From: an uncultured Planctomycetota bacterium | GTDB lineage: Bacteria > Planctomycetota > Planctomycetia > Gemmatales > Gemmataceae | DNA length: 64,000 bases | Direction of reading: 5' to 3' | Assembly: GCA_963849325.1 (NCBI GenBank) | Contig: CAWKHF010000010.1 | Span: 256,001-320,000, forward strand | Shown: piece after piece, positions 39,338 to 53,963 of the stretch | How the letters are laid out: the number at the start of each line of letters is the position of its first letter | Position numbering within the stretch: position 1 is the stretch's first letter | Made by a program: the position numbers and the translations under genes | The notes under the pieces: model-generated | What the model was told of the DNA's origin: nothing | What the model saw: the letters and a program-made list of their open reading frames with translations, nothing else | The model's database searches: none

Positions 39338-39502
39338 GATCGTTTCCTCCGGTCCCCCTGTGCGCTCATTCGACGTGTGGGTCGGTCGGAGCGCCACTTC
39401 TGCTTACGATAATCCCGGCTCCCCATCGCACGCAAGAGAGCAACACCCCATTCGCCCCTTCGAGCGACGTAGTTCCCATCGCTGTCACCCGACCGACGGC
39501 GA

Positions 39503-41296
39503 CTAGCGTAGCATATCCGTCAGCGCTCCGGGCGACCTTACGCCGTCCGTAACGGCGTGGTACGTCGGCGCGTCGGCGGGCAGGAAGGGAGTGAACGGCG
39601 GCATCTCCTCGCGGCCTAGGCGAAGCTCAAGCACGCCCGGCCGGTTGGTCCAGGACGAGCTGTCTTCCAGGGCTTCGTTCAACTCCTCGATGGTGCCCGC
39701 CGAGCCTACCCAGAGGCGGTGAGGGGGACCGAACCCCCGGGCGACCTTGGCCACGGAAATGGGAGAATACCGCGAGCACTCGATCCTCCCCTCGAAGTAG
39801 AGCTGTTGCCGGGTGACACACATGCCGTGCATGCCGTTGTTGAAAACGACGAAGAGAATAGGCAGCTGATGATCGACGGCGGTATGCACCTCGGCGCCGA
39901 GCATCAGGAAGGCACCATCGCCGCAGAAGACCATTGTCCGCGAGCCGCGCGGGGAGCCTATCTGCGCGCCGATGGCCCCGGCGATGGCGTAGCCCATGCC
40001 CCCCATCCCCAGGGCGATCGTGGCGCTGACGTTCGCAGGGATGCGCAGGTAGTGCAGGGCGGCCGCGGCACAGTTGCCGGCGTCGAAGAGCACGTGGCCT
40101 TTCGCGGGCAGGAACGGCTGAAGCATCTCGAGAGCCTGACTCTGTCGCAGATCTCCGGTCATGGGGACCGAGTGCGAACGGCACCTGTCCAGGGGCAGGT
40201 CGGGGGCCAACTCGGGCGTGAAGCGGGTGACGGGCACCGGGACGGGCACTCGGGGAACCACGTAGGCCTGGTCCGCTAACTGATTGAGTTGGTCGAAGAC
40301 GACTCCCGCGTCCGCCTCGATGGACAACGAGGAGCGGACGATGCGGGACACCTCGCCCATGTCGATGTTCACGACGGCCAACCGCTCCGGATGAAGGGCC
40401 TTCTGGATCGGCTGAGCCGTCATCACATTCAGGCCGGTTCCGACCGCGACGATGAGGTCCGCCTGCTCCGCCAGGAACCGATGCGCCGACGGCTCGCCGG
40501 CCACGCCCACGGTTCCCAGGTACAGAGGGTCGTCGTTGGGGAACACCCCCTTACTGGCGAGGGTCGTCGCCGTCCGCACCCCCAGGCGGCGCGCGAACGC
40601 GACGACTGCGGCGGGATTGCTGCACCGGTCCACTCCACTCCCGAGCAGCAGCACGGGTGTCTCGGCCGTGCGGATGGCGTCGAACAGTTTGGCGACCGCA
40701 TCGGCCGGCGCGTACCACAGGCCGTTCAGCTCGTTCAGACGGTCGGGCATCCAGCTGGGTCGTGGGCCGACGTCGCTGTCGAACAGGTCGCGGGGGATCA
40801 GCAGCACGGAGGGACCGGGCCGACCACTCATCGCGGCCGTGACCGCGCAGTCCAGGCACCGCCAGAATTGGCCGGGCTCCGTGATTCGCGCCTGATACTT
40901 GGAGATGGCGGCCCAGAGCCTGTCCGCGTTCACGGATCGACCGATGCCGGAAGAATCTTGAAAGGCGCCTCGACCTTCGAGCCGAGTAGGCGGTTGGCCG
41001 ACGATGGCCAGCATCGGCACCGACTCCGCGAACGCCTCGGCGACGCCCACGGCCAGGTTCATCATCCCGCCACCGGATGTGCTGCAGCAGACCCCCAGAG
41101 TGCGATGCACCCGGGCTCGGCAGTCGGCCATGAAGGCAGCGCCCACTTCGGACTTGGCGCACACGGAGCGGAAGCCCTCGCCGCCCAGCCGATGCACGGC
41201 GTCGTGCAGGTGCTCGATATTGGCGCCGCTGACACCAAACAGGTATCCCAGACCCCAGTCGCGCAAGGTCGTAACCAGAGCTTCTGCCAGTTTCAT
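39503..41296 (-). CDS. Thiamine diphosphate-dependent enzyme (acetolactate-synthase-like carboligase; NzsH/CqsB3-like by context)
   Basis: FGVSGA, SEVGAAFMAD, TSGGG, AFQD; ThDP motif GDGAF...VVFNN. Confidence 0.9.
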   Translation of the reverse strand: MKLAEALVTTLRDWGLGYLFGVSGANIEHLHDAVHRLGGEGFRSVCAKSEVGAAFMADCRARVHRTLGVCCSTSGGGMMNLAVGVAEAFAESVPMLAIVGQPPTRLEGRGAFQDSSGIGRSVNADRLWAAISKYQARITEPGQFWRCLDCAVTAAMSGRPGPSVLLIPRDLFDSDVGPRPSWMPDRLNELNGLWYAPADAVAKLFDAIRTAETPVLLLGSGVDRCSNPAAVVAFARRLGVRTATTLASKGVFPNDDPLYLGTVGVAGEPSAHRFLAEQADLIVAVGTGLNVMTAQPIQKALHPERLAVVNIDMGEVSRIVRSSLSIEADAGVVFDQLNQLADQAYVVPRVPVPVPVTRFTPELAPDLPLDRCRSHSVPMTGDLRQSQALEMLQPFLPAKGHVLFDAGNCAAAALHYLRIPANVSATIALGMGGMGYAIAGAIGAQIGSPRGSRTMVFCGDGAFLMLGAEVHTAVDHQLPILFVVFNNGMHGMCVTRQQLYFEGRIECSRYSPISVAKVARGFGPPHRLWVGSAGTIEELNEALEDSSSWTNRPGVLELRLGREEMPPFTPFLPADAPTYHAVTDGVRSPGALTDMLR

Positions 41297-41348
41297 GAGA
41301 GGGCCTTTCCATCGCTTGCCGAATGTGCCGTGTGTCTACTGCTTCCAA

Positions 41349-42350
41349 CTATGCCGGCTTCCAGTGGATGACAGCCGAGGCGGCGAAGTCTCCGGCGTGG
41401 GCAAATCCACCGAGCACGAGATGAGAGTTCGCCTTCAATTGCCCGCTGTCGATGGCCTCCTCGAGGCAGATCGGCAGGGCGGCGCCGAACAGGTTGCCGT
41501 GCCGCTCGAAGGTCGATACGTGTCTTTGCGTTGGCACCTGCAGCGCTTCGCGCCAGTTGCGCAGGAACAGGTTGTTGGGCTGGTTCGTGATGAGCGTGCC
41601 GATCTCACTGGGAGGAAGTTCGGCACGGCGGCAAGCCTCGCGGATGGCCTCCGGGACGATGCGGTTGGCACGGCTCATAATGTGGCACAGCTTCGCCTCG
41701 TTGAAATCCACGGAGGTACATGCCGTGCTCGGCTCCCACCATGCGGTGCCATCGGCACGGACGACAGCCATGTCGCCGGCATACTCGCAATAGTTCTGAT
41801 GCACGACCGCCTTGACCGGCGATTCCCCCGAGGCCACGAGATAGCCCACGCCACAGCCGTCGCCAGGGATGCGGGCCTGCTTGAGCTTGCGGGTCTGTTC
41901 ACTGCCGAACAGACGGCCGGCCGAATTCTGGACGTTGCACAACAGGGCCGTCTTCGCCCCGTGGCAGCTCATCAGCGCCTGGGCCTGGGCGATCATGTAG
42001 ACGAACGAGACGCATCCTCCATTGTGGATGTCGAGGATCCAGCTAGGGCGAATCCCCAGCGCCTTGGCGGCGTCGGCCCCGCAGCCGGTGAACGGCTGGT
42101 CCGGGGAGGTGACGTTGGTCATGAGGATATCAACGTCCTTGTGCAAGTTGAGGTTCAGGCGAGCCGCCAATTTGCGGGCGGCATGGACGATCATCACACT
42201 CGCCGTTTCATCGCGGGAAACGTGATGCCGCTGTTTCACGCCGCGAAACATGAGGGGCGCTCGCTCCGAATCGCTGTTCTGAAAGAAGGAGTTCTCGACG
42301 ATTCGTCGCGGCAGGTAACTGGCCGCGCCAACCAGGCTTACGGTCTTCAT
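41349..42350 (-). CDS. 3-oxoacyl-ACP synthase III (FabH-like) family protein
   Basis: ASYLP, DIHNGGCVSF (catalytic Cys), PGDGCG, TNQPN, HGNLFGA, GGFAHAG. ATG 42350 is translationally coupled to the upstream gene. Confidence 0.9.
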   Translation of the reverse strand: MKTVSLVGAASYLPRRIVENSFFQNSDSERAPLMFRGVKQRHHVSRDETASVMIVHAARKLAARLNLNLHKDVDILMTNVTSPDQPFTGCGADAAKALGIRPSWILDIHNGGCVSFVYMIAQAQALMSCHGAKTALLCNVQNSAGRLFGSEQTRKLKQARIPGDGCGVGYLVASGESPVKAVVHQNYCEYAGDMAVVRADGTAWWEPSTACTSVDFNEAKLCHIMSRANRIVPEAIREACRRAELPPSEIGTLITNQPNNLFLRNWREALQVPTQRHVSTFERHGNLFGAALPICLEEAIDSGQLKANSHLVLGGFAHAGDFAASAVIHWKPA

Positions 42351-42988
42351 GGCCGACCTCCCATGGTCATGGGCAGCCCGTTGGCATGGCGGTACTCGAG
42401 AATGTGCTTGAGGTTGTCTAGCTCGATCTTGTGGCCCGCGTAGAAGAACGGCCACATGTCCCCCACCCAGACCTTGCGGCCCTTGGGCGACCTGTCCGGG
42501 AACGGGTTGTTGTCGTAGTAGGGGTGCCGGCAGTTGGTCCAGAGCACGACACAGCCGGGCCGGTTGAGCACCAGCTTCGCGGGCACGACGCGCATCAGGT
42601 AGATCATCCACAGTTCGTCGCCCTGGTCCCAGGCGCAGTGGTAATCCACCGTCATCGCCTCGGGGTTGGCGACCACCCGTGTGTAGATCTTCGTGGCGCC
42701 GCCGATGCGGTCGGTGGCAACGACCATCCCGGTTTCGTCCATCGGCGTGAAATCGCGCAGGCTGTACGTCCACTCCTGCAGCGTGTACACATCGGCCAGG
42801 TACTCAAACGCCTTCTCGGGCGGGCAATCGACGTAATCCTGCAGCGAGCAATACTGGCCGTAAACCTCGTCGTGCGGGTAAACGGCGTGCGTCATTTCCA
42901 TCGTCAGATCGGTCATTTCATCCTTGCAGCAGTTCTCGATGCGACGTACGCCGGGTAGGCGGTCGATGGCAGCCGAAATGAGATTCAT
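42347..42988 (-). CDS. SRPBCC/START-fold cyclase-aromatase-like protein (NzsI/CqsB2-like by context)
   Basis: 213 aa from ATG 42988 (GGAG RBS); CPPEKAFEYLAD..LQEW, DYHCAWDQG, WMIYLMRV, C-terminal helix ELDNLKHILE typical of SRPBCC. Confidence 0.8.
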   Translation of the reverse strand: MNLISAAIDRLPGVRRIENCCKDEMTDLTMEMTHAVYPHDEVYGQYCSLQDYVDCPPEKAFEYLADVYTLQEWTYSLRDFTPMDETGMVVATDRIGGATKIYTRVVANPEAMTVDYHCAWDQGDELWMIYLMRVVPAKLVLNRPGCVVLWTNCRHPYYDNNPFPDRSPKGRKVWVGDMWPFFYAGHKIELDNLKHILEYRHANGLPMTMGGRP

Positions 42989-43248: not shown

Positions 43249-43410
43249 TATCTCCGATCACCCCACGTAGGACTTCATCAGGCGCGGCCTCATCAAGCGT
43301 GCGCGGCGCCGGGATTGTTCCTGGCGGGCCTGTCACAAGTGATCGCGCGGGGGCTACCAGAGGGTGAAGAACATTCTCGTCATTGCGGATTTCAGACGGC
43401 GGATTGCAGA

Positions 43411-44592
43411 ATGAAGAAGCTACTCCCTGAGCATCTGCTGTCCCGGAAATCCGCCAGGCTCAAGCTGCCCTACTCGCTAACCACTGTCTGGCGACAACAG
43501 CTGCGCTATCTTCCGGCGGTGTTCGCCGTCGCCTTCAGTGCGGTCCTCAGCACCCTGCAGTGCGGACTTCTGGTGGGCATCCTCAACATCGCGGCCCGGC
43601 CGATCCACCGCAGCGATGCCCACGTCTGGCTGGCTTCTCCCGGCGTGCGTGGCCTGGGGTTTGGCCGTCCCATCCCTCTGGCCTGGAAGACCCGCCTGCT
43701 GTCGCAGCCGGAGGTAGAGCGAGTGGAAGAGTACCTGTGCGGCTTTGCCCAGTTCCAGAGGCCCGACGGCAGCACCGACCAGTGCAGCGTCGTCGGCATG
43801 AGGCTGGAGGCGGGCTCCCTGGGAGCGCTGGCGGACCTTACGCCGGAGATGCGCCAGAGCCTGACGCGGCCGGGCACGGCCGTGGTGTACGAGTCGGAAC
43901 TGCCGCTCCTGGGACTGCGGGATACGCCGGGAGAGGTCGGAGAGGTGGAGGGCCACCGTGTGGAGATTGTCGGCACCCTTCGGGGAGGCGACGGGGCAGG
44001 GTTGACTCCCGGGCTGTACTGTTCGCTGCGAACCGCTCGTGGGCTGTTGGCCTCGGTGTCGGGGCGACAGACGACTTACCTGTTGGCCCGGTGCCATGCT
44101 CCCGAACAAGGCCCTCTCCTGGCCCGAAAGCTGGAGGCGAGCTATCGAGACATGGACGCGATGACGAGCGGAGAGCTGGCCTGGCGAACCCAGTGTTACT
44201 GGCTGATCAAGACCCGGGCAGGGCTCGTCCTCGGCTTCGCCGCGGCGCTGGGCCTGATGGTCGGCGCGGTGGTCACTTCGCAGACGCTCTACGGGGCGAG
44301 CGTGGCCTCGCTCCGCGAGTACGCGGTCCTTCTCGCCCTGGGCATCCCACGTTGGCGGCTGCGGCGGCTGGTGCTCGGCCAGTCCTTCTGGGTCACTCTG
44401 GCCGGGCTCACGCTGGCCCTGCCGCTGACCGTGATCCTGGCCCACATCGCCCGCCCGATGAACGTGGAAGTGCTCCTACCGCCCTGGCTCGTGGCCGCGG
44501 TCGGAGGCCTTACGCTGGCGGTCGGCCTGCTGTCGGGGACCACCGCCCTGCGCTCGCTCCGCCAGGCTGATCCCGCCACGTTGCTGCGTTAA
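43411..44592 (+). CDS. ABC exporter permease, DevC/FtsX family (copy 1)
   Basis: RYLPAVFAVAFSA, periplasmic MacB-like domain, VVTSQTLY, REYAVLLALG, C-terminal ADPATLLR. Confidence 0.88.
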   Translation: MKKLLPEHLLSRKSARLKLPYSLTTVWRQQLRYLPAVFAVAFSAVLSTLQCGLLVGILNIAARPIHRSDAHVWLASPGVRGLGFGRPIPLAWKTRLLSQPEVERVEEYLCGFAQFQRPDGSTDQCSVVGMRLEAGSLGALADLTPEMRQSLTRPGTAVVYESELPLLGLRDTPGEVGEVEGHRVEIVGTLRGGDGAGLTPGLYCSLRTARGLLASVSGRQTTYLLARCHAPEQGPLLARKLEASYRDMDAMTSGELAWRTQCYWLIKTRAGLVLGFAAALGLMVGAVVTSQTLYGASVASLREYAVLLALGIPRWRLRRLVLGQSFWVTLAGLTLALPLTVILAHIARPMNVEVLLPPWLVAAVGGLTLAVGLLSGTTALRSLRQADPATLLR

Positions 44593-44607
44593 AGAGGAAA
44601 AAGGACC

Positions 44608-45324
44608 GTGAAGACACTAATCGCCCGTAACCTGACGCGCAGCTTCGGCAGCGGCGACACCCGCGTGGTCGCCCTGGACGATGTCTCTCTGGAGCTGCGC
44701 CCTGGGGAGTTCTCGCTGCTCATGGGGCCGTCGGGGTCGGGCAAGTCCACTCTCCTGGCCGTGCTCTCCGGGTTGGTGCCGCCCGACAGTGGCCAGGTCG
44801 TCGCCCTGGGCCAGAAGGTGTGGGCCCTGTCACCTCTCCAACGAGAGGAATTCCGCCGCCAATCGACCGGATTTATCTTTCAGGGCTACAACCTGTTCCC
44901 CGCCTTGACCGTCCGCGAGCAACTGGAGATGGTTTTGCTCTGGGCAGTCGGGGTGCCGCCCGACGAGGCCGAGCACAAGGTGGAGGCCATGCTGGACCTC
45001 CTGGGCCTGGCCGAGAAAGCCGACTGCCTCCCCGAGCAATTGTCCGGCGGCGAGAAGCAACGAGTGGCCATCGCCCGCGCCCTGATCAAGGATCCCCAAC
45101 TCCTCTTCGCCGACGAACCCACCAGCGCCCTCGACTGGCAGCGCGGCCGGCAGATCGTCGAGCTGTTGCAGGCCAGCGCCCGCGAGCGGGGGGCAGTCCT
45201 GGTCGTGGTCTCCCACGACAACCGGCTCCTCCCCTATGCCGACCGCGTGCTCCACCTCGAGGACGGCTGCCTCGATCGGCCGGAAGCGCCGGCTGGACCC
45301 GAACCCCACAAGAGGAGTCCATGA
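44608..45324 (+). CDS. ABC exporter ATP-binding protein, DevA/LolD family (copy 1)
   Basis: GPSGSGKS, LSGGEKQR, FADEPTSALD, VSHD. Confidence 0.95.
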   Translation: MKTLIARNLTRSFGSGDTRVVALDDVSLELRPGEFSLLMGPSGSGKSTLLAVLSGLVPPDSGQVVALGQKVWALSPLQREEFRRQSTGFIFQGYNLFPALTVREQLEMVLLWAVGVPPDEAEHKVEAMLDLLGLAEKADCLPEQLSGGEKQRVAIARALIKDPQLLFADEPTSALDWQRGRQIVELLQASARERGAVLVVVSHDNRLLPYADRVLHLEDGCLDRPEAPAGPEPHKRSP

Positions 45325-46373
45325 AAGTCTTCCGTCCCCGCACGTTGGTTTGGCTGCTGGCCGTGGCCGTGGTGCTGGTCGGCCTGAGCGGCGCCGCCGG
45401 CGTTTTCCGCCTGCCGCTGGCCCTGTTCGGCTGCAGGCAGCCGGATTCGGAACGGCCCGGCCTGCAAGGCGTGGAGTGCCTTGGCCGGGTCGATGTCGAG
45501 GGCGGCCTGCTCGAACTCGCTCCTGTCCGCTCGGGTCGTGTCGTGGCAGTGAGCGTCCACGAGGGAGAGGCGGTGCCTGCAGGGGCGGTGTTGCTGCGAC
45601 TGGATGAGCAGCCGGCCCAACTGCTCGTTCAGCAGGCCCGCGCGGCCCAGCAGGTGGCCGAGACCCAGGTCGCTCTTGCTGAGGAGGCGGCCAGGCTGCA
45701 CACCTTCCGGGTGGCCGGCCAGGAGGCGCTTGCCCGGGCGGCTCGGAATCGCGTGCCGGCCGCCCGCGAGCAGATGGAGCGTAAGGAACGACTCTTCGAC
45801 CAGGGACTGATCGACAAGGAGGAGAAGGCCGCCGCCCGGCAAGAGGTGAAAACGCTGGAGTCCCTGGCGGAAGCTGAGGAGAAGCGGGTGGAGGGCTTGC
45901 GCGGCGAGAACCCTTGTTTGCGCGTTCAGCAGGCCAGGGCGGAGCTGGCGCGGGCGGAGGCGCTGCTGGCGGAGGCGCGGTACGCTCTGGACCAGTGCGT
46001 GGTGAAAGCGCCCGTGGCAGGCAGTGTGCTCCGGCTGCGCTGCAGCGCCGGCGAGGTCATCTCACCGCAGCTGGCCGTAATCGTGTTCGCCCCGGCGCGG
46101 CCTCGTATCGTCCGTGTCGAGGTGGAGCAGGAGCTGATCCATCGGGTCGAGGTCAGTCAGCCCGCCGTGGTGAGGGACGAAATGCACCCGGAACGATCCT
46201 GGAACGGCCGGGTCGTCCGGATGAGCGACTGGTACTCCGACAATCCCACCATCCCCCGCCGGATGGCAAGGTTCACGGACATCCCGACGGTGCAGTGCGA
46301 GATCGCGCTGGACCCCGGACACCCGCCATTGCGCATCGGCCAGCGGATGACGGTGCTTCTTGGCGGCCCGTGA
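45321..46373 (+). CDS. HlyD/DevB-family membrane fusion protein (copy 1)
   Basis: ATGA overlap with the ATPase; N-terminal TM, lipoyl-like GRVVAVSVHEGEAV, coiled coil, KAPVAGSV, LRIGQR. Confidence 0.9.
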   Translation: MKVFRPRTLVWLLAVAVVLVGLSGAAGVFRLPLALFGCRQPDSERPGLQGVECLGRVDVEGGLLELAPVRSGRVVAVSVHEGEAVPAGAVLLRLDEQPAQLLVQQARAAQQVAETQVALAEEAARLHTFRVAGQEALARAARNRVPAAREQMERKERLFDQGLIDKEEKAAARQEVKTLESLAEAEEKRVEGLRGENPCLRVQQARAELARAEALLAEARYALDQCVVKAPVAGSVLRLRCSAGEVISPQLAVIVFAPARPRIVRVEVEQELIHRVEVSQPAVVRDEMHPERSWNGRVVRMSDWYSDNPTIPRRMARFTDIPTVQCEIALDPGHPPLRIGQRMTVLLGGP

Positions 46374-46755
46374 CCCAGCCGTGACTGCAGCAACGGGTCG
46401 TGGGACTCGTGCTGGTCGGGCATAGCTCGCTGCAGCGCATCGAAGGTCTTCCGCCTTCGCTCGCATGGGCTGCGGCAACCCGGCTGGGCATCCGTCTCCA
46501 AATCGCATCCGGTCTGTCTTCTCTTGACCACATCGGTGAGGACGAACCCGCCGTTCTCCGTATGGTCGCCTCGTTCTCCCTCTCGATTTGCGAAGCGATT
46601 GTCACAGCTCCCCGTTCAGGTCGAAGAAGAGATGGAGCGGAAACGCTTCCTCCCCTGATAACCACACGCTTGGGAGATGGGCATGGCGCCGGCCTCCAGC
46701 CGCGCCGGGTCCGTGCATCGTCTTGCTTCTTGGATTCTGAACAACGGAAGGTCCC

Positions 46756-49503
46756 ATGAGCCACATGCTACTGAGTGTCCCGAGTCCACTGCTGTCCTCC
46801 GCAACGAGCGGATCGCCGGCGCCGGCCCCCTCCGCGGAACGAGAGCCGCGCCGTCAGGGGCAGACCGAGGGACATCCATACGCGCGCTGCGTCAACCCCT
46901 ACCTGGCCGACCTGCTGAATAAGCTGTGGCTGGACAAGCGGTTCGTGAGCGGCGAGGGCTGTGAGCTAATCGACGACACGGGCCGGCGCTACCTCGACGC
47001 CGTGGCAGCCTACGGGGCACTGCCCTTCGGCTTCAATCCTCCCGAGATCTGGCGCAGCTTGCTGGAGGTGCAGCGGAGCGGCGAGCCGAGCTTCGTGCAG
47101 CCCTCGTTGCTGGATGCGGCCGGCGAGCTGGCCGAACGCTTGCTGGCCGTGGCGCCGGCGAACCTCCGCTACGTGACGTTCGCCAACAGCGGCGCCGAAG
47201 CGGTCGAGGCCGCCGTCAAGATGTGCCGGGTCGCCACCGGGCGGCTGGGCATCCTGGCCACGAATGGCAGCTTCCACGGCAAGACCCTGGGGGCGCTGTC
47301 CGCGACCGGCAACGCCCATTACCAGGACGGCTTCGGCGCTCCGGCCGGCGATTTCCGCCACATCCCCTTCGGCGATGCGGCCGCGCTGCGCCGCGAGCTG
47401 GAGGCCCATCCGGGCTACTATGCCGCCTTCCTGGTCGAACCGATCCAGGGCGAGGGCGGCGTGATCGTGCCGCCGCCGGGCTATCTCGTCGAGGTGCGCG
47501 ACATCTGCACCCGCGCGGGCGTTCTCCTGGTGCTGGACGAGATTCAGACCGGGCTGGGACGAACCGGCGCCCTGTTCGCCTGCGAGGCCGAGGACGTTCA
47601 GCCGGATGTCCTGACGCTCGCCAAGGCCCTGGGCGGCGGACTGCTCCCGATCGGGGCCGTCCTCAGCAGCGAAAAAGCCTACTCCGAGACGTTCGCCCTC
47701 AAGCATTCCTCGACGTTCGCGGCCAACGCCCTGGCCTGCCGAGCCGGGCTGGCCGCCCTCGACCTGCTGACGCGCGACGACGGCGCCCTGGTGCGGCGCG
47801 TGGCTCGCAACGGCGCCCGTCTCCAGGAAGGCTTGCTGGCCTTGCAACGGCGCTTTCCGCAGTTGATCGCCGAGGTGCGCGGCCGGGGCTTCTTGCTCGG
47901 CCTCCGCTTCACCACCGATCGTGCTCTCTGGCCGGAGGGTCTGCTGGGCGTGGCGCTCGAACAGGAGTTCTTTACGCCCGTGTTCGCCAGCTACATGCTC
48001 AACGTGGAAGCGGTTCGCGTCGCCCCGACCCTCAACGGCAAGGCGGTCCTCCGCATCGAACCGGCGTTGACGATGTCCTGGCCGCAGTGCCAGCGGTTGC
48101 TGTCCGCGCTGGAGCGGGCGCTGACCGTGTTCGCGGCCGGAGACACGGGGCGGATTCTGGCATCGATCCTGGAAGGTCGGCCCTGCCCGCCGGCGCGGTC
48201 GATGCCGCTGCCGAAGCCGTGGCTTGAGGTCAAGCTCCGTCCAGCCGAACGCCGCTTCGCCTTCCTGATGCACCCCCTCGACTATGCCAACGCCGTCGAT
48301 TTCGATCCGTCGCTGGCCTACCTCGATGCGTCCTCTCTGGAGACGGTGGTGCGCAAGGTCGCTTCGTTCGTGGAGCCGTTCGTGGTCAGCCACGGGCGTG
48401 TGGTGTCGGCGACCGGCGAGACGATCTACGGCGAGTTCATCACCCTGCCGCGCACCGCCGAGGAGCTGACGCGGATGCGTCGCAAGGAGGCGATCGAGTA
48501 CGTCCGAGGGGCGCTGCACCTGGCGCGAGACCGCGGCGCTCAGCTCGTCGGGCTGGGGGCGTTCACCTCCGTGGTGACGCTCGGCGGCCGAGCGGTGGCG
48601 GAAGAGGGAGTGCCGATCACCACCGGCAATTCGTACACGTCGGTCGCGTCCGCCGAGGCCATCCGCAAGGCCCTGGCGCTGGTGGGTCGCGGGGAGAAGA
48701 CGCCTCCTACAGCGGCCATCATCGGAGCGACCGGCGCCATCGGCCGTACCCTGGCCCTGCTGCTCGCCGAGGACGTGGGCCGGCTCATTTTGGTGGGCAA
48801 CCCGGACTCCTCCGCCAAGTACGTCCGCGAGCGCTTGCTGGCGACGGCCGGCGATGTCGTCCGCTTTGTCAGCGCCCGGCACGCCGAGGGTTCGACCTTC
48901 CGGCCGGGCACCTTCGCCGCCCAGTTGCTCGCTCATCTGCCCGGTGGCGTGGTCGAGCAAGCCGCGATCGACGAGGTCGTCAGCCGGCTGGAACAGACCG
49001 GCTGGTTGGCGATCACGCAGGAGACGGCCGCCGCCGTGCGCCAGGCTCGGGTGGTGGTCACGGCGACCAGCGCCACCGGCACCGTCGTGCGGCCGGAAGA
49101 CCTGCGCCGGCGGGCGGTGGTTTGCGATGTCTCGCGGCCGGCCAACGTCGGCCAGGAGATCCTCGAAACGCGGCCCGACGTGCTGGTGATCGACGGCGGC
49201 GTCATCGCGGCGCCCGCCGGATCGGCCCTCAGCCAATTCGGACTGGGCGACGGCCTGATCTACGGCTGCATGGCGGAAACGATGATGCTCACCCTGGCCG
49301 GGCACCTGCGCAACACCAGCCTCGGCACCGACCTGACGCCCGAGACGCTGCACCTGTTGCGGACGCTGGCCGACAAGCATGGCTTCCACGTCGCCAAGCT
49401 ACGCAGCTTCGGCCGGCCGCTGGAAGAAGCCGACTTTCACCGCTTCCGCTCGGCGGAGGCTTCCAACAGGAGTGACAACCGTCTGTCACGAGCGGCATCC
49501 TAA
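46756..49503 (+). CDS. Class III PLP aminotransferase fused to a C-terminal acyl-ACP-reductase-like NAD(P)-binding domain
   Basis: N: NSGAEAVE, SFHGKT, EPIQGEGG, DEIQTGLGRTG, TLAKALGGG. C: FAFLMHP, GLGAFTS, TTGNSYT, GATGAIG, DVSRP, YGCMAE. Confidence 0.9.
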   Translation: MSHMLLSVPSPLLSSATSGSPAPAPSAEREPRRQGQTEGHPYARCVNPYLADLLNKLWLDKRFVSGEGCELIDDTGRRYLDAVAAYGALPFGFNPPEIWRSLLEVQRSGEPSFVQPSLLDAAGELAERLLAVAPANLRYVTFANSGAEAVEAAVKMCRVATGRLGILATNGSFHGKTLGALSATGNAHYQDGFGAPAGDFRHIPFGDAAALRRELEAHPGYYAAFLVEPIQGEGGVIVPPPGYLVEVRDICTRAGVLLVLDEIQTGLGRTGALFACEAEDVQPDVLTLAKALGGGLLPIGAVLSSEKAYSETFALKHSSTFAANALACRAGLAALDLLTRDDGALVRRVARNGARLQEGLLALQRRFPQLIAEVRGRGFLLGLRFTTDRALWPEGLLGVALEQEFFTPVFASYMLNVEAVRVAPTLNGKAVLRIEPALTMSWPQCQRLLSALERALTVFAAGDTGRILASILEGRPCPPARSMPLPKPWLEVKLRPAERRFAFLMHPLDYANAVDFDPSLAYLDASSLETVVRKVASFVEPFVVSHGRVVSATGETIYGEFITLPRTAEELTRMRRKEAIEYVRGALHLARDRGAQLVGLGAFTSVVTLGGRAVAEEGVPITTGNSYTSVASAEAIRKALALVGRGEKTPPTAAIIGATGAIGRTLALLLAEDVGRLILVGNPDSSAKYVRERLLATAGDVVRFVSARHAEGSTFRPGTFAAQLLAHLPGGVVEQAAIDEVVSRLEQTGWLAITQETAAAVRQARVVVTATSATGTVVRPEDLRRRAVVCDVSRPANVGQEILETRPDVLVIDGGVIAAPAGSALSQFGLGDGLIYGCMAETMMLTLAGHLRNTSLGTDLTPETLHLLRTLADKHGFHVAKLRSFGRPLEEADFHRFRSAEASNRSDNRLSRAAS

Positions 49504-49561: not shown

Positions 49562-50755
49562 ATGACTCTGTCTTACCAGCTCTACGAAACGATCAATCAG
49601 ATCCCCCTGGACGACTGGCGCGAGGCATCCCAGGAGGATTCGCACGGCTTCATGGACCCGAACTTCTTGCTTGCCCTGGAGAAGGGATTGGAGGGCCAGG
49701 CGCGAATCTTTCACGTCCTGATCCGCGCGGAGGACGGCCGGCCCGCCGCCTGCGCCAGCCTGTCGCTCCTGCCGCTCGATCTTTTGCTGCTGGCGGGGCC
49801 GCGCCTTCAGAAGGCGTTCGGCTGGGTCCGCAAGCTGGCCCCCAACCTGGGGAAAGTAAACGTCCTCCTGTGTGGCCTGCCCTTTTCGGCGGGGCAGAGC
49901 CACCTGGCGTTCGCGCCGGGCGCCAACCGGGCACGGGCGGTGCTGCTGCTGGACACCCTGCTGCGGCAACTGGCCCGGAGCCACCGCGCTCGGCTGATCG
50001 TCTTCAAGGAATTCGGCGACGATGCCCGCGCGTACCTGGACCCGTTGCTCGAGCACGGCTATTGCCGTGCCGCCAGCCCCGCGTCGTACGTGATGCCGAA
50101 ATCGTTCGCCAGCCTGGCCGACTACTGTGCCGCCCTCAAGCGGCACTACCGTTACAACATCCGCAGTTCCCAGCAGAAGTTCGAGCGGGCCGGCTGCCGG
50201 GCCGTCCACCTGGAGGATCCCGACGAGATCCGCCGCGTGTACACGCCAGAAGTGCATCAGCTCTATGAAGCGGTCGTCGGCAAGTCCGACCTCAAGCTCG
50301 AAGTTCTGCCGCATGCTTTCTTTCACGAGTTGGTGAATCGGCTTCCAGGCCAGGTCGCGTTGACGGTGGTCTATCGCCAGGAGCGCGCGATCGCTATCGC
50401 CTGGGGCCTCTCGGCCGATCCCGAGTATCACGGCCTGTTTTGCGGGATCGACTACGAACACAACGCCGAGTGCGATCTCTATTTCAACGTCGTGTACCAG
50501 CATCTCGACTACGCTTTCCGGCGCGGCAGCCGGCTCATCACCCTGGGCCAGACCGCGGAAAGCTTCAAGACCCGCCTCGGCTGCGTGGGCAAGGCACGCC
50601 ACGTCTATGCTCGCGGGGCAGGCCCGCTCCTGTCCCGGGTGTTGCGGCGCAGCGCCGGCTTCCTCTTCCCCGATCGACCGATCGCGCCCGCGCACGACGT
50701 GTTCAAGGCGATCGAGCCGGCCCGTCCGCGCAAGCAGGCGCTGCCCGTCAGTTGA
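49562..50755 (+). CDS. Large GNAT-fold acyltransferase (FemAB / BioF2-like acetyltransferase type)
   Basis: 397 aa; IVFKEF, SFASLADYCAALKRHYRYNIR, GIDY, LYFN, LGQTAESFKTRLG; AAGGAG RBS. Confidence 0.82.
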   Translation: MTLSYQLYETINQIPLDDWREASQEDSHGFMDPNFLLALEKGLEGQARIFHVLIRAEDGRPAACASLSLLPLDLLLLAGPRLQKAFGWVRKLAPNLGKVNVLLCGLPFSAGQSHLAFAPGANRARAVLLLDTLLRQLARSHRARLIVFKEFGDDARAYLDPLLEHGYCRAASPASYVMPKSFASLADYCAALKRHYRYNIRSSQQKFERAGCRAVHLEDPDEIRRVYTPEVHQLYEAVVGKSDLKLEVLPHAFFHELVNRLPGQVALTVVYRQERAIAIAWGLSADPEYHGLFCGIDYEHNAECDLYFNVVYQHLDYAFRRGSRLITLGQTAESFKTRLGCVGKARHVYARGAGPLLSRVLRRSAGFLFPDRPIAPAHDVFKAIEPARPRKQALPVS

Positions 50756-50844: not shown

Positions 50845-51963
50845 ATGGGTTATGCACTGACAATCCTGTGGCACGATCGACAGCGCTATCTGCCCGCCAT
50901 GCTGGCGGTGACGTTCAGCGCCCTGCTAGTGGCCCTGCAATTCGGCCTGCTCCTGGGGACGTTCTCGATGGTGTCGATCCCCATCGACCATACCAGCGCC
51001 GACGTCTGGGTGGGCCAACCCCAGGTCAGCAGCGTTGACATGAGCCTGTCCGTGCCCGAGCGCTGGCGCGACCGGATGGAAGGTCTGCCCGAGATCGTCC
51101 AGACGGAGCCTTACATCCAGTCGTTTATGAGCTGGTCCAAACCGCGCGGCGGCACGGAACACATCATCGTCATCGGCTCGCGGCTGCACGACGGCGCCCT
51201 CGGAGCGGTGACGGAGTTGACGCCGCAGCTGCGCCGGAAGCTGGTCGAACCGGGCGCGGTGGTGGTGGACCAGGCGGAATTCGGACGCCTGGGTTTGACC
51301 AAGGGGATTGGCGAAAGTGCCGAGGTCAATGGCCTGCGGGTACGGGTCGTCGGCGTGGTGCGCGGTCTCAAGGGGCTGGGAGGACCATACATCTTCTGTT
51401 CGCTGGAGACGGCCCGCCGTCTGGTGCGGATGGCGCCGGACGAGGTGACGTACCTGCTGGCCCGTTGTCGCAATCCGCAAGACGCCGGGCGGGTCGTGGC
51501 GCGGTTGCGCCGCTATCCGAACATGTCGGCGTTCACCAGCGCCGAATTCTCGTTCCGCTCGCGCTGGCACTGGCTGGTGATGAGCGGCGGCGGCATCGCG
51601 CTGGGCTGTGCCGCCCTGCTGGGCCTGCTGGTCGGGGCGGTGGTCACCAGCCAGACGCTGTACGCGGCGACGGCCGCCTCGTTCCGCGAATTCGCGGTGC
51701 TGCGAGCGCTGGGCGTGCCGCAGAGGCGCCTGGCCGGTACCATCCTGGCGCAGGCCTGCTGGCTGGGGGTCGCCGGCGTCCTGCTGGCCCTGCCGGTCGT
51801 CTACGCCCTCTCCAGCGTCGCCGGCTGCCTGGGCGCTCGCGTGTTCTTGCCGCCATGGGTGCTGGGTTCGTCCGCCGGTCTCACTCTGATTACGGCCCTG
51901 ATCGCCGGCCTAGCCGCTCTGCGCTCGCTACGCCACCTGCAACTGGCGACGCTATTGCGGTGA
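50845..51963 (+). CDS. ABC exporter permease, DevC/FtsX family (copy 2)
   Basis: RQRYLPAMLAVTFSA, VVTSQTLY, REFAVLRALG; paralog of 43411..44592. Confidence 0.9.
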   Translation: MGYALTILWHDRQRYLPAMLAVTFSALLVALQFGLLLGTFSMVSIPIDHTSADVWVGQPQVSSVDMSLSVPERWRDRMEGLPEIVQTEPYIQSFMSWSKPRGGTEHIIVIGSRLHDGALGAVTELTPQLRRKLVEPGAVVVDQAEFGRLGLTKGIGESAEVNGLRVRVVGVVRGLKGLGGPYIFCSLETARRLVRMAPDEVTYLLARCRNPQDAGRVVARLRRYPNMSAFTSAEFSFRSRWHWLVMSGGGIALGCAALLGLLVGAVVTSQTLYAATAASFREFAVLRALGVPQRRLAGTILAQACWLGVAGVLLALPVVYALSSVAGCLGARVFLPPWVLGSSAGLTLITALIAGLAALRSLRHLQLATLLR

Positions 51964-52131: not shown

Positions 52132-52874
52132 ATGTTTCCGGAAAAGCCAACTCTGAGAGCTTGCAACCTGGTCCGCACGTTCGAGCAGAACGACATCGTA
52201 ACGACCGTCTTGCGGGACGTGTCGATGGCGCTGCATCGCGGCGAGCTGTCCCTGCTCATGGGGCCTTCGGGCAGCGGCAAATCGACGTTGCTCGCCGTGC
52301 TCTCCGGGTTGCTCCGTCCGACGGCCGGGCAAGTGCTGGCCCTGGGACAGGATTACTGGAGTCGAAGCGCCATCGAGCAGGAGCGATTCCGGCAGGGGCA
52401 TTTCAGCTACATCTTCCAGGGTTACAATCTGCTGCCGGCCTTGACGGCGCGGCAGCAACTGGAGCTGGTGTTGCGCTGGGCGGAGGGAACGACCGTGCGC
52501 GCGAGGCTCGGCGGCGAACCGAGCGGATGCTGGGGATGCTGGGGCTTAGTGGCAAGGCGCATCTGCGGCCGGCCCAGCTCTCCGGCGGCGAAAAACAGCG
52601 GGTGGCCATCGGCCGTGCCCTGGTCATGGAACCGGATTTCTGCTTCGCGGACGAGCCAACCAGCGCCCTGGACTGGACGCATGGCGAGGAAGTCATTCGG
52701 CTGCTGCAAGAAGCCGCCCGCCAGCGCGGCACCACCGTCCTGGTGGTCAGCCATGACGCACGCCTCCTGCCATATGCGGATCGGTCGTTCCACCTGGAAG
52801 ACGGTCGCTTGCACGAGGAGCGTGTGCTCCAGACAACGAGTGCGGAAGAAGAACTGGTTGCGGCGAGCATCTGA
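52132..52874 (+). CDS. ABC exporter ATP-binding protein, DevA family (copy 2); frameshift near 52495
   Basis: GPSGSGKS in the 52132 frame; LSGGEKQR, FADEPTSALD, VSHD in the 52161 frame; TAAGGAG RBS. Confidence 0.9.
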
Positions 52875-52904: not shown

Positions 52905-53963
52905 ATGGCGAAAACAAGGCGATTGGGCTGGGTGCGTTGGCTGCTGGGCGGGATCGTGTTCACGGCCGGCATGGCCGGCGCGGGAGCGAACTTCCCGAAG
53001 TCCAGCGCCGTCAGCGCGCCGGCGGACGCGAGTCCTGTCGCGGAGCCGGTGGCTTGCTCCGGCCACGTGGATGTCAAGCACGGAGTCGTCTCGCTCTCGC
53101 CGAGTCCGTCCGGCCGAGTGGCCGAGGTGCTGGCCGAGGAGAACGAAACCGTCAAGGCCGGCGCCTTGTTGCTGCGCCTGGATGATACCGTGGCCCGGCT
53201 GCGCATCCAAGAAGTCGAGGCGGACCTGGCGGCGTCTCGACTTCAGCTGGCCCAGGCCCGCAAACGGCCTGAGCAACACCAGGCCCGGCTCGCCCAGGTG
53301 CAGGCCGGCATCGAGGCGGCGCAGAACCGCCTGGCCGCGGCCCGGCACGAACGCGATCGGAAGACAGACTTGCTCGCCAAGGACTTGCTCCCGGAGGCGG
53401 AACTCAACATCGCCGGCGATCAGGTGAAGGAGGCGGAAGCGCTGCTGCGGGCGGAAAGGGAGAAACAGGCCGAGCTGCAGCTGCACGATCCCGCCGCCGA
53501 CATCCGCCGGGCGGAGGTGAACGTCCGGGCCAGCGAGGCCCGGCTGCAACAGGCCCAGGAAGCTCTCAAGGAATGTAGTCTGCGGGCGCCCTCCGACGGC
53601 AAGGTACTCCGCGTCCTCGTGGGGCCGGGCGAGATGCTCGGGGCACAAGCGAAGCAGCCCGCGCTGCTCTTCTGCCCGGACGGGGCGCGCTTCATCCGGG
53701 CCGAGGTGGAACAGGAGTTCGCCCACCGGGTCCGGGTCGGCGATCCGGCGACCATCCGCGATGAAAGTGATGACCCGTGCGTCTGGCGGGGTCGTGTGAG
53801 CCTGATGTCCGACTGGTTCACGCAACGACGCTCGGTCCTGCAAGAGCCGCTCCAACTGAATGATGTCCGTACCCTGGAATGCCGGATCATCCTGGAGCCG
53901 GGTCAACCGCCGTTGCGGATTGGCCAGCGCGTCCGGGTGCTGATCGGCACGAACCCTTCCTGA
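52905..53963 (+). CDS. HlyD/DevB-family membrane fusion protein (copy 2)
   Basis: TM anchor, SGRVAEVLAEENETVKAG, coiled coil, LRAPSDGKV, LRIGQRV; GGAGG RBS. Confidence 0.92.
   Translation: MAKTRRLGWVRWLLGGIVFTAGMAGAGANFPKSSAVSAPADASPVAEPVACSGHVDVKHGVVSLSPSPSGRVAEVLAEENETVKAGALLLRLDDTVARLRIQEVEADLAASRLQLAQARKRPEQHQARLAQVQAGIEAAQNRLAAARHERDRKTDLLAKDLLPEAELNIAGDQVKEAEALLRAEREKQAELQLHDPAADIRRAEVNVRASEARLQQAQEALKECSLRAPSDGKVLRVLVGPGEMLGAQAKQPALLFCPDGARFIRAEVEQEFAHRVRVGDPATIRDESDDPCVWRGRVSLMSDWFTQRRSVLQEPLQLNDVRTLECRIILEPGQPPLRIGQRVRVLIGTNPS

Follow-up and report, generated by a model that had tools for sequence, protein, structure and literature searches.

The window, the whole 64-kb stretch of planctomycete DNA that was analyzed, contains a gene coding for a class III transaminase (TA) followed in the same polypeptide by a putative thioester reductase (TR) that resembles the acyl-ACP reductase (AAR) of cyanobacteria. 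A gene for a Fem-like protein is located directly downstream, and genes resembling those for DevBCA-type ABC exporters are found on both sides of the pair. A further ORF of 119 aa (46400-46759) was not counted as a gene; it had no family match, and only a 68-aa similarity to it was detected in the orthologous locus (L001).

Table 1. Positions in the window of the fusion gene, its domains and catalytic landmarks, and the neighboring genes
Feature	Position	Strand	Basis
TA-TR fusion gene (P0001)	46756..49503	+	Intact ORF, 915 aa, without internal stop
Class III (omega) aminotransferase domain, residues 65-456	46948..48123	+	Pfam PF00202 (Aminotran_3), E 3e-83
Lys290 codon, predicted PLP Schiff-base lysine	47623..47625	+	Invariant (32/32); analogy with PtTamH K340 (PMC9594044)
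AAR-like thioester reductase domain, approximately residues 498-900	48247..49455	+	PDB sequence matches, TIGR04058, VIA-align
GATGAIG nucleotide-binding motif (G657, G660, G663), residues 657-663	48724..48744	+	Glycines invariant; aligned over AAR GATGDIG
Cys838 codon, predicted acyl-enzyme nucleophile (YGCMAE, residues 836-841)	49267..49269	+	Invariant; aligned with the AAR and PigE Cys
Fem-like tandem-GNAT "predicted N-acyltransferase" (P0122, 397 aa)	49562..50755	+	Acetyltransf_6, E 2e-15; FemAB_like, E 5.5e-14
DevC/MacB-like ABC exporter permease	50845..51963	+	Pfam MacB_PCD, FtsX; NCBIfam devC, E 1e-15, below cut-off
DevA/LolD-like ABC ATPase	52132..52874	+	Two frames in the assembly, apparent frameshift near 52,500
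DevB/HlyD-like membrane-fusion protein	52905..53963	+	Pfam HlyD_3, HlyD_D23; NCBIfam DevB, E 1e-20, below cut-off
Second, upstream DevC-/DevA-/DevB-like set	43315..46373 (43315-44592, 44608-45324, about 45351-46373)	+	Pfam and NCBIfam matches

Domains and catalytic landmarks of the fusion protein

Every motif quoted in the first-pass annotation of this DNA was located in the 915-aa protein, far beyond chance. DEIQTG corresponds to residues 261-266, TLAKALGGG, which includes Lys290, to residues 287-295, and TTGNSYT to residues 622-628. In an alignment of 32 family members, K290, D261/E262/Q264, T622/G624/N625, G657/G660/G663, and C838/M839/E841 were all invariant. The intact class III aminotransferase described in that annotation is thus borne out by the Pfam match, by DEIQTG, and by a lysine that is the same in all 32 sequences. 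A role in NADP(H) binding has been stated for the GxxGxxG motif (PMC10829540), and C294 of AAR is described as catalytic (PMC9594044, PMC10829540). The ortholog at L001, a protein from a Gemmataceae metagenome-assembled genome, is 91% identical to the fusion protein. Source annotations give the name "predicted amino acid dehydrogenase."

The AlphaFold model of the fusion protein had a mean pLDDT of 82.8. Structural matches of the transaminase domain included 2ord_A and 8r2p_A (both Z 46.9) and the transaminase domain of PigE (4ppm_B, Z 46.7), which was also the top Foldseek match, with 39% identity. The reductase part (model residues 500-895) was superimposed by VIA-align on the whole AAR chain 6jzq_A with a Z score of 34.0 and an rmsd of 3.1 Å, 322 of 340 residues being aligned. 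A Foldseek search with the whole model returned transaminases only, and the AAR match was seen only in the wide VIA-align search. In comparisons with PDB sequences, the C-terminal 441 aa matched the N-terminal half of PigE (4ppm; E 6.6e-32, 114 bits) and cyanobacterial AAR (6jzq; E 4e-16, 62 bits). GCMAE of the fusion protein aligned over GCMAE of PigE and ACFAE of AAR, and TTGN aligned over TTGN of AAR. The match to NCBIfam TIGR04058 (long-chain acyl-ACP reductase; E 5e-20, 72 bits) was below the cut-off of 449.7. On sequence grounds, the C-terminal domain is classed as a homologue of AAR and not as a TIGR04058 equivalog.

Among the best 150 cluster representatives of the reductase domain, 89 were transaminase first and none was reductase first. 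Ten of these 150 were TA-TR-AMP-binding forms of ∼1,400 aa. Other relatives included a 1,523-aa FAAL-ACP-TA-TR protein (L038), ACP-TA-TR forms, a TA-TR protein with a docking domain that follows a nonribosomal peptide synthetase (NRPS) (L042), and TA-TR proteins that follow a type I polyketide synthase (PKS) (L047 and L058). Many relatives in Bacillota are located among housekeeping genes without a biosynthetic cluster. Eight full-length relatives were found in a plasmid collection, from Paraburkholderia, Rhodovulum, Haematobacter, and Leisingera; TamH was not among them. Fusion of the Fem-like domain to TA-TR was considered and rejected, the ∼1,400-aa forms carrying an AMP-binding domain instead.

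The Fem-like neighbor and the flanking exporters

The Fem-like protein scored above the Pfam gathering cut-offs for both PF13480 (57.6 bits; cut-off, 22) and PF04339 (52.5 bits; cut-off, 27). The best Foldseek matches of its model (pLDDT 89.4) were FemX and the aminoacyl-tRNA-dependent peptide synthases Sbb17 and Sba18, and the match to 7z6a_A had an E value of 3e-13 and TM scores of 0.52/0.61. The Foldseek list also included the acyl-CoA-dependent N-myristoyltransferase and a tandem GNAT of clavulanate biosynthesis. The tandem-GNAT fold is common to FemX-type proteins, AzdA, VlmA, and the Fem-like protein, but identity to solved structures is only 9 to 16%, and the Pfam family of the Fem-like protein (PF04339/PF13480, COG3146) is distinct from that of FemX, AzdA, and VlmA. 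AzdA, for which a role in the tRNA-dependent addition of alanine to a fatty (hydroxyl)amine has been proposed in azodyrecin biosynthesis (bioRxiv 10.1101/2023.10.13.562208), is a precedent for tRNA-dependent aminoacyl transfer onto a fatty amine. In those parts of the literature that were searched, no tested function was described for the PF04339/COG3146 family. The literature searched also yielded nothing relevant on the pairing of a TA-TR fusion with a Fem-like gene and no mention of a planctomycete fatty amine or alkylamine.

A scan with the single Fem-like sequence retrieved one locus only, and a profile scan retrieved 41 loci. At 26 of the 41, both TA and TR domains were encoded within 6 kb, and these 26 loci carried seven phylum or class labels. 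The Fem-like gene is directly downstream of the fusion gene at L001, L002, L003, and L059; a search with the fusion protein yielded 79 loci, only 4 of which have it. Apart from the Fem-like gene, the sole neighbor common to L002 and L003 is an unannotated 276-aa ORF. In 301 evenly sampled genomes of the phylum, the reductase domain was detected in 24 and the Fem-like protein in 15, and only the genome from which the window comes had both. The distribution of the pair is patchy within the genus (2 of 11 genomes). A paralogue of the fusion with the PigE domain order, on contig 2 of the window genome, adjoins a paralogue of the Fem-like gene, and the same arrangement is found in three congeners. 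The fusion gene and the Fem-like gene form a conserved, but not universal, two-gene module.

At four heterocystous cyanobacterial loci (L099, L100, L103, and L127), a relative of the Fem-like protein is found with a stand-alone transaminase, an acyl-CoA-dehydrogenase-like protein, a nitric-oxide-synthase (NOS) oxygenase, and a formyltransferase. Homology between the Fem-like protein and a tandem GNAT that follows TA-TR in Hydrogenedentota was rejected (hhalign probability, 0.18); therefore, the two partners can at most be analogous.

In the window and also in the ortholog locus, the Fem-like gene is followed by a DevBCA-like set. In the latter (L001/L087), the counterparts of the permease and the membrane-fusion protein are 95% and 89% identical, respectively. 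In the ATPase gene, positions 1 to 80 of the ABC_tran profile are matched in the frame of 52132 and positions 79 to 137 in the frame of 52161-52874, and in tblastn the match passes from frame 1 into frame 3; the counterpart in L001 is uninterrupted. None of the proteins reached its NCBIfam cut-off (DevA, 225 bits versus 295.8; DevC, 57 versus 290; DevB, 74 versus 129). Judged by these scores, the flanking exporters resemble the DevBCA glycolipid exporter but are not members of those families. Exporters of the lipid type recurred near the module, DevC-like permeases being encoded at 5 of the 41 loci retrieved with the Fem-like profile and MMPL proteins at 5 of the 41. The upstream exporter set is 38 to 44% identical to the downstream set and was not found by tblastn within 8 kb upstream of the L001 ortholog; whether it is part of the module is uncertain.

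The PP-binding carrier domain (PF00550) had 12 matches in the genome but none in the 64-kb window, and no adenylating gene was found in the window. A pathway like that of PigD and PigE, with the divergent KASIII-like gene (41349-42773) and the gene for an acetolactate-synthase-like ThDP enzyme (39503-41296), was considered but was unsupported; in tblastn searches, neither gene was found within 8 kb upstream of the L001 ortholog or at any of the 79 related loci.

Proposed function and competing explanations

The fusion protein has the homology, the fold, and the conserved catalytic landmarks of TamH/KecF-type enzymes, and by analogy it would convert an acyl thioester to an aldehyde and the aldehyde to an amine. 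It is probable (roughly 0.8) that it is a bifunctional enzyme of this type that works in a module with the Fem-like transferase and an exporter. A single-chain conversion of this kind, as the first-pass annotation had envisaged, is supported by homology and by the published relatives, the route from thioester through aldehyde to amine having been described for both TamH and PigE (PMC9594044, PMC8341465).

In the AAR-like domain, Cys838 would accept the acyl group of a thioester, the donor being most likely an acyl carrier protein. The acyl-enzyme would then be reduced by NAD(P)H, held at G657xxGxxG663, so that the aldehyde is released, and the transaminase, with PLP on Lys290, would turn the aldehyde into a primary amine with an amino acid as the donor. 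Because there is no carrier-protein or adenylating gene in the window, primary metabolism may supply the substrate in the form of fatty acyl-ACP, as is the case for AAR in cyanobacteria. The identity of the thioester donor is a guess, because the reductase activity and the natural substrates of the closest characterized fusions (TsFusion, TmFusion, TfFusion, and PpKTFusion) were left undetermined in PMC10829540 and because PtTamH did not accept acyl-CoA (PMC9594044). The Fem-like transferase may acylate the new amine, probably with aminoacyl-tRNA or alternatively with acyl-CoA as the donor, and the flanking DevBCA-like ABC pump may export the resulting lipid. We infer that the product is an exported N-acylated or N-aminoacylated alkylamine.

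A more specific proposal, which we regard as tentative and rather doubtful, is that the fusion and the COG3146 tandem GNAT constitute an undescribed, self-contained pathway for tRNA-made N-aminoacyl alkylamines with export of the DevBCA or MMPL type. This proposal covers all seven phylum or class labels and both domain orders and envisages cationic lipoamines that are sent to the cell envelope. If it is true, it would provide the first substrate for the uncharacterized COG3146/PF04339 family.

Other explanations for the locus were considered. The pair might be the front end of an N-N/N-O (azoxy/oxadiazine) pathway, in which the amine is N-hydroxylated and the hydroxylamine is aminoacylated by the Fem-like enzyme. 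In the reactions of AzdA and VlmA, an (N-hydroxy)amine receives an amino acid from tRNA (bioRxiv 10.1101/2023.10.13.562208), and the NOS oxygenase, acyl-CoA-dehydrogenase-like, and formyltransferase neighbors at the four cyanobacterial loci are consistent with such chemistry. However, the Pfam-scanned ORFs of the window included no gene for an N-oxygenase, a flavin monooxygenase, or a protein like VlmB or VlmO, and L002 and L003 have no annotated neighbor in common besides the Fem-like gene; thus, a pathway of this type seems improbable. Operation in the catabolic direction, from an alkylamine or polyamine through an aldehyde to an acyl thioester formed by the AAR-like domain, would suit a transaminase domain whose best match after PigE is putrescine aminotransferase (NF008570, E 3e-95; YgjG structures) and would also suit the Bacillota relatives located among housekeeping genes. 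It is quite unlikely, given that the characterized relatives work reductively and form the amine (PMC9594044, PMC8341465), that other relatives are fused with thioester-supplying modules (adenylation, carrier, PKS, and NRPS), and that the gene in the window is accompanied by an acyltransferase and exporters rather than by genes for uptake or beta-oxidation.

It is also hardly credible that the protein is a transaminase only, its C-terminal domain being either a generic dehydrogenase for amino acids, shikimate, or a semialdehyde or a Rossmann domain without activity. Pfam matches to this domain were limited to sub-threshold Rossmann families (Shikimate_DH, Semialdhyde_dh, and THF_DHG_CYH_C), source annotations point to an amino acid dehydrogenase, and activity of the homologous reductase domain could not be demonstrated in PMC10829540. 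However, AAR is the specific match in both sequence and fold, along its whole chain; the catalytic Cys, TTGN, and GxxGxxG do not vary in any of the 32 aligned sequences; and the homologous domain of TamH is required for conversion of acyl-ACP to amine (PMC9594044). The first-pass annotation had stated that resemblance to shikimate or amino-acid dehydrogenases, with loss of the thioester-forming Cys, would speak against its proposal; the domain proved to be AAR-like, with Cys838 retained. The same annotation had regarded the protein as an independently fused fatty-amine synthase with a new architecture, its domains being in the opposite order to those of PigE and TamH alike. The order is truly the reverse of that in PigE (PMC8341465), as is also seen in the swapped matches to the PigE profile NF053554, and the PigE order has been called a sign of convergent evolution (PMC10829540). 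In TamH, contrary to what that annotation states, the transaminase comes first and the reductase last (PMC9594044). The order is not new, because TamH, KecF, and the published transaminase (TAm) fusions, one of them 54.5% identical, have it, and the predominance of transaminase-first forms among the reductase-domain representatives likewise argues against novelty. Furthermore, the reductase domain matched 4ppm with a higher score than AAR, and 4ppm was also the top Foldseek match of the transaminase domain. For either domain, the nearest solved structure is that of PigE; therefore, shared, rearranged domain lineages fit better than fresh recruitment. The data do not require an independent fusion, and a newly fused enzyme of novel design is very improbable.

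The preferred explanation, a TamH/KecF-type enzyme in a module with the Fem-like transferase and an exporter, leaves knowledge of a family that has already been studied for the production of amines from fatty acids unchanged as far as the fusion enzyme itself is concerned, and the new questions concern only the partner gene and the product. The COG3146/PF04339 gene recurs beside TA-TR fusions in many phyla, whichever their domain order, and this pairing allows a concrete, testable proposal on what becomes of the amine in nature and on what COG3146 proteins do. Both domain orders are present in one genus, each next to a separate Fem-like paralogue, and this genus offers a natural system for studying the origin of the two orders.

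Comparison with known systems

PtTamH of Pseudoalteromonas tunicata, which functions in the synthesis of tambjamine YP1, has a transaminase (M1-K500), a linker, and an AAR-like thioester reductase (K547-S941), with landmarks K340, G707xxG710xxG713, and C887 (PMC9594044). Compared by this published description, the window fusion has the same design. The spacing from the Lys to the first Gly is 367 residues in both proteins, and that from the first Gly to the Cys is 180 residues in PtTamH and 181 in the window fusion. PtTamH converts a C12 acyl group bound to the ACP of TamA to dodecylamine with NADH and L-Glu (PMC9594044; bioRxiv 10.1101/2025.08.11.669332). Whereas TamH belongs to a bipyrrole pigment cluster and has a dedicated ANL-ACP partner, TamA, the window fusion has a Fem-like partner, and there is no pigment cluster and no dedicated carrier or ligase in the 64 kb.

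The "natural transaminase fusions" described in 2024 (TsFusion, TmFusion, TfFusion, and PpKTFusion) have the TA-then-TR order and showed transaminase activity on aliphatic aldehydes and amines in vitro (PMC10829540). TsFusion (WP_006903020.1, P0073) is 54.5% identical to the window fusion over 890 aa, and its Cys815 is located in the same CMAE motif as Cys838. These fusions are from Bacillota and Pseudomonas, whereas the window fusion is from Planctomycetes; the parts of PMC10829540 that were consulted mention no Fem-like neighbor for them. KecF, from the koreenceine cluster of Pseudomonas koreensis described in 2019, has the same order and was proposed to reduce an ACP-bound polyketide and then transaminate the aldehyde (PMC6498172). 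A transposon mutant in the PLP-dependent aminotransferase gene of that cluster, which we take to be kecF, lost inhibitory activity (PMC6498172). The KecF cluster encodes a type II PKS for tetrahydropyridine alkaloids, and the window has no such PKS genes.

In PigE, from the MAP pathway of Serratia prodigiosin biosynthesis, the order is reversed (reductase, residues 2-341; transaminase, residues 394-848; 4ppm, PMC8341465). PigE and the window fusion have the same two domain families and, by analogy, the same sequence of thioester reduction and then transamination. The window fusion does not have the reductase-then-transaminase order that characterizes PigE, and its score against the PigE equivalog NF053554 was 545.3 bits, compared to a cut-off of 850, with the halves swapped: residues 30-388 matched profile positions 371-730, and the C-terminal part matched positions 206-362. 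AAR (6jzq/6jzu) has the fold, TTGN motif, GxxGxxG, and catalytic Cys in common with the TR domain of the window fusion, but AAR is a free-standing enzyme of ∼340 aa whose product goes to an aldehyde-deformylating oxygenase in the formation of alkanes, and the TR domain is part of a fusion and has ∼27% identity to it.

As far as these published descriptions extend, the TA-then-TR order has already been reported, and PigE alone among these systems is reversed. The window fusion has a transaminase with the PLP lysine and a C-terminal AAR-like domain with GxxGxxG and the Cys, in that order in one uninterrupted polypeptide, and full-length similarity to an experimentally studied member, TsFusion. 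It is an enzyme of the TamH/KecF/"natural transaminase fusion" type, one more member of this group, from Planctomycetes.

Domain makeup of the fusion protein

The fusion open reading frame is free of stops exactly over its tabulated interval, and all motifs quoted in the first-pass annotation were found in its product. The Pfam class-III aminotransferase family matched residues 65-456 (E, 3e-83), and outside this range Pfam returned only Rossmann matches, all sub-threshold. When the C-terminal 441 residues were also used as a separate query, they aligned with the N-terminal half of the NCBIfam PigE profile (E, 2e-50) and matched TIGR04058, the long-chain acyl-ACP reductase (AAR) model (E, 5e-20). 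In solved structures, the matches of the same residues were to PigE, within its N-terminal half (4ppm; E, 6.6e-32), and to AAR from cyanobacteria (6jzq and 6jzu; E, 4e-16). In these alignments GCMAE of the fusion fell on GCMAE of PigE and ACFAE of AAR, and TTGN fell on TTGN of AAR.

Coordinates of the fusion gene, its motifs and associated features
Feature	Position	Orientation	Remarks
Polysaccharide locus	2781-33491
KASIII-like gene, acetolactate-synthase-like ThDP enzyme, GFO/IDH/MocA oxidoreductase	38027-42773	- strand	further upstream of the fusion gene
Second exporter set	43315-46373		upstream of the fusion gene; 38-44% identical to the downstream set
Transaminase-reductase fusion	46756-49503	+ strand	915 residues
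DEIQTG	fusion residues 261-266
TLAKALGGG	fusion residues 287-295		includes Lys290
TTGNSYT	fusion residues 622-628
GATGAIG	fusion residues 657-663
YGCMAE	fusion residues 836-841		includes Cys838
Fem-like protein (Acetyltransf_6 + FemAB_like)	49562-50755	as fusion	downstream; 397 aa
DevC/MacB-like permease	50845-51963	as fusion	downstream
DevA/LolD-like ABC ATPase	52132-52874	as fusion	downstream; split over two frames near 52,500
DevB/HlyD-like adaptor	52905-53963	as fusion	downstream
PigE-order gene and Fem-like paralogue	contig 2, 961866-965800 (locus L080, 7867-11801)		same genome
Fem-like paralogue	locus L080, 10512-11801	convergent with PigE-order gene	39% identical to the window's Fem-like protein

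In a 32-member alignment of sequences 49-91% identical to the fusion protein, K290, D261/E262/Q264, T622/G624/N625, G657/G660/G663 and C838/M839/E841 were invariant. The AlphaFold model built from this alignment had a mean pLDDT of 82.8 and a pTM of 0.78. A Foldseek search with the whole model returned transaminases only, with the transaminase domain of PigE first (39% identity) and YgjG also present. AAR 6jzq_A superposed on model residues 500-895 (VIA-align, 48,161 chains; Z, 34.0; rmsd, 3.1 Å; 322/340 residues). The observation of a transaminase joined to an AAR-like domain is thus confirmed. The reductase half (model m9841f8e7afc8, residues 454-908) also matched 9e4s_A, which is titled 'TAD from Carmabin Biosynthetic Pathway' (Z, 29.8; 17% identity).

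The Fem-like partner gene

Genes for DUF1501 and DUF3500 proteins lie close to the fusion gene, and no PP-binding domain was found within the 64-kb window. The string of KASIII-like, ThDP and oxidoreductase genes, in which the KASIII-like protein has an N-terminal extension of ∼140 aa and the ThDP enzyme is 597 aa long, is a superficial reminder of PigD-type chemistry. It was rejected as part of the system because no counterpart of these genes was found within 8 kb upstream of the fusion ortholog of locus L001 (91% identical) or close to the other related loci. A locus for biosynthesis and export of polysaccharide takes up the first 33 kb of the window and encodes a Wzy_C ligase/polymerase, Poly_export, UDP-GlcNAc 2-epimerase, several glycosyltransferases, a WecA-like GT4, a UDP-sugar dehydrogenase and heparinase II/III-like, flippase-like and P-loop chain-length-regulator-like proteins.

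The neighborhood that is conserved is the pairing with the Fem-like gene, which lies directly downstream of the fusion gene in 4 of the 79 loci that a search with the fusion protein yielded (L001, L002, L003 and L059) and not in the remainder, mostly from Bacillota. Eleven fusion homologues (72-88% identity) and 11 Fem-like homologues had longest contigs of identical size (including 4614, 5219 and 7273 bases), from which we infer that they are co-encoded.

In the reverse test, the Fem-like family profile alone was searched against the genome collection, and both fusion domains were sought within 6 kb of the 41 loci obtained. Transaminase and reductase, transaminase first, were directly upstream on the same strand in 18 loci and on the opposite strand in 1; reductase-first counterparts were on the opposite strand in 7. 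Six loci had only the transaminase and nine had neither domain, with the contig ending <1.1 kb upstream of the Fem-like gene in four of the nine. The 26 positive loci, which include related genomes that are not independent and five contigs already retrieved before, were labeled Planctomycetota, Rokuibacteriota, Verrucomicrobiota, Binatia, Cyanobacteria (Xenococcus and Crocosphaera), Acidobacteriota and Alphaproteobacteria; one locus was labeled Solirubrobacterales. The link dissolves at larger distance: among 301 genomes drawn evenly from the phylum, 24 had the reductase domain and 15 the Fem-like protein (E ≤ 1e-10), and only the window's own genome had both. No description of the pairing was found in the literature searched, outside which lie the supplements of PMC10829540 and PMC9594044, and it is the pairing that deserves follow-up.

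The Fem-like protein was modeled as a tandem GNAT (mean pLDDT, 89.4). Its best Foldseek matches included FemX of Weissella (E, 3e-13; TM, 0.52/0.61), the aminoacyl-tRNA-dependent peptide synthases Sbb17 and Sba18, FemA, aminoacyl-phosphatidylglycerol synthases, an acyl-CoA-dependent N-myristoyltransferase and a clavulanate tandem GNAT. All of these share 9-16% sequence identity with it, so the donor of the predicted transferase may be an aminoacyl-tRNA or, alternatively, an acyl-CoA. No tested function of COG3146/PF04339 was found in the literature searched. Exporters of the lipid type are recurrent neighbors of the pair: DevC-like permeases were present in 5 of the 41 Fem-like loci and MMPL proteins in 5.

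A Fem-like relative ∼40% identical is part of a conserved cluster in heterocystous cyanobacteria (L099, L100 [a Chlorogloeopsis fritschii plasmid], L103 and L127), together with a stand-alone class-III transaminase, an SRPBCC protein, an acyl-CoA-dehydrogenase-like protein, a nitric-oxide-synthase oxygenase domain, NAD_binding_4 reductases, a formyltransferase and a DevBCA-like exporter. This cluster may encode the synthesis of an N-N or N-O compound.

Second module and spread of the architecture

The same genome carries, on contig 2, a paralogue in PigE order (reductase first). Its gene has two frame changes in the transaminase part in the assembly, but three congeners, G309, G307 and G303 (L084, L085 and L086; 875 aa in L085), have it in a single frame, and there the Fem-like paralogue adjoins it too. 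These frameshifts, together with the uninterrupted counterpart in L001 of the split ABC ATPase, suggest that both interruptions are assembly indel errors rather than pseudogenes. The transaminase-first module was found in 2 of 11 genomes of the genus searched (the window's own and G309), so within one genus each domain order goes with a partner from the same transferase family.

A word-indexed search (8000 scored) gave 2376 proteins similar to the fusion protein at E ≤ 0.001. Nearly all of the 120 matches listed were similar in length and most covered 93-100% of the query; about a dozen were shorter, with a coverage of 41-87%. Among these listed matches, the closest named relatives were Gemmataceae MAG proteins (91% identity), the named taxa were Gemmataceae, Singulisphaera, Pirellulales, Thermaerobacter, Symbiobacterium, Archangium and Ignavibacteriales, and some proteins had an extra PP-binding or AMP-binding domain. 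An exhaustive HMMER search of 1.84 billion cluster representatives with the reductase domain gave 2632 matches at E ≤ 1e-3, 1837 at E ≤ 1e-10 and 468 at E ≤ 1e-30. Among the best 150 of the 2632, 63 were plain transaminase-then-reductase proteins, 16 had the same order but were extended at the N terminus (by FAAL and carrier domains in the two scanned) and 10 at the C terminus (by AMP-binding in the four scanned). The reductase stood alone in 56 proteins of ≤600 aa, many probably fragments, and in 5 of >600 aa; none of the 150 was reductase-then-transaminase.

In a subfamily of ∼1400 aa (P0222, P0229, P0242 and P0273), an adenylating AMP-binding domain follows the reductase domain; on a Leisingera plasmid (L082, 9013-13200) such a gene precedes one for an MMPL transporter. 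The fusion gene follows a 2559-aa type I PKS in two Hydrogenedentota loci (L047 and L058) and, via a TubC-type docking domain, an NRPS module in a Planctomycetota locus (L042). Adjoining it is a 351-aa tandem GNAT, for which no sequence relation to the Fem-like family was detected (hhalign probability, 0.18). The arrangement seems analogous, in that an amine would be made and then acylated. In many Bacillota loci (within L004-L061) the fusion gene sits amid housekeeping genes; a conserved 188-aa ORF (18 loci) and a ∼307-aa ORF (8 loci), both without a Pfam family, recur near it, directly upstream where genes were mapped.

Proposed chemistry and characterized relatives

Domain homology, fold, invariant catalytic landmarks, domain order and a conserved neighborhood are established by the present data. 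By analogy with characterized relatives, the acyl group would be transferred to Cys838 of the reductase domain, hydride from NAD(P)H would release the aldehyde, and the aldehyde would be transaminated on PLP-Lys290. Genomic context suggests that the substrate may be an acyl-ACP of primary metabolism and that the amine may be N-acylated or N-aminoacylated by the Fem-like enzyme and exported by the DevBCA-like pump. The thioester-to-aldehyde-to-amine function put forward in the first-pass annotation is a sound proposal.

Other explanations, all unlikely, concern the direction, product and competence of the enzyme as well as its origin. The fusion might run in the catabolic direction; PtTamH, together with TamA, converts fatty acids to amines and refuses acyl-CoA (PMC9594044; bioRxiv 10.1101/2025.08.11.669332). 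The reductase domain might be inactive; its cysteine is among the invariant residues, and the study "Natural transaminase fusions for biocatalysis" (PMC10829540), which characterizes four such fusions as transaminases and maps AAR C294 onto their cysteines, states that their reductase activity was not determined. An azoxy-type pathway is a further alternative. The azodyrecin preprint (bioRxiv 10.1101/2023.10.13.562208) proposes that AzdA moves alanine from tRNA onto a fatty amine that has been N-hydroxylated and, in a side reaction, onto the plain amine, and AzdA is likewise a precedent for the predicted Fem-like role. Finally, the protein might be an independent, novel fusion, as was first proposed from a domain order thought to be the reverse of both PigE and TamH.

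According to the published domain limits, the order is reversed relative to PigE only (reductase, residues 2-341; transaminase, 394-848; PMC8341465). The claim of a new order fails because it assigned TamH the wrong order: in the 941-aa PtTamH the transaminase (M1-K500) precedes the AAR-like thioester reductase (K547-S941), as in the window protein (PMC9594044). From the PtTamH landmarks K340, G707xxG710xxG713 and C887, lysine and first glycine are 367 residues apart in both proteins, and first glycine and cysteine are 180 apart in PtTamH and 181 in the window protein. One of the four fusions of PMC10829540, TsFusion (WP_006903020.1; search hit P0073), shares 54.5% identity with the window protein across 890 residues and has the cysteine of its CMAE motif at position 815, in agreement with that paper. 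The window protein is a new member of an already known and characterized kind of enzyme.
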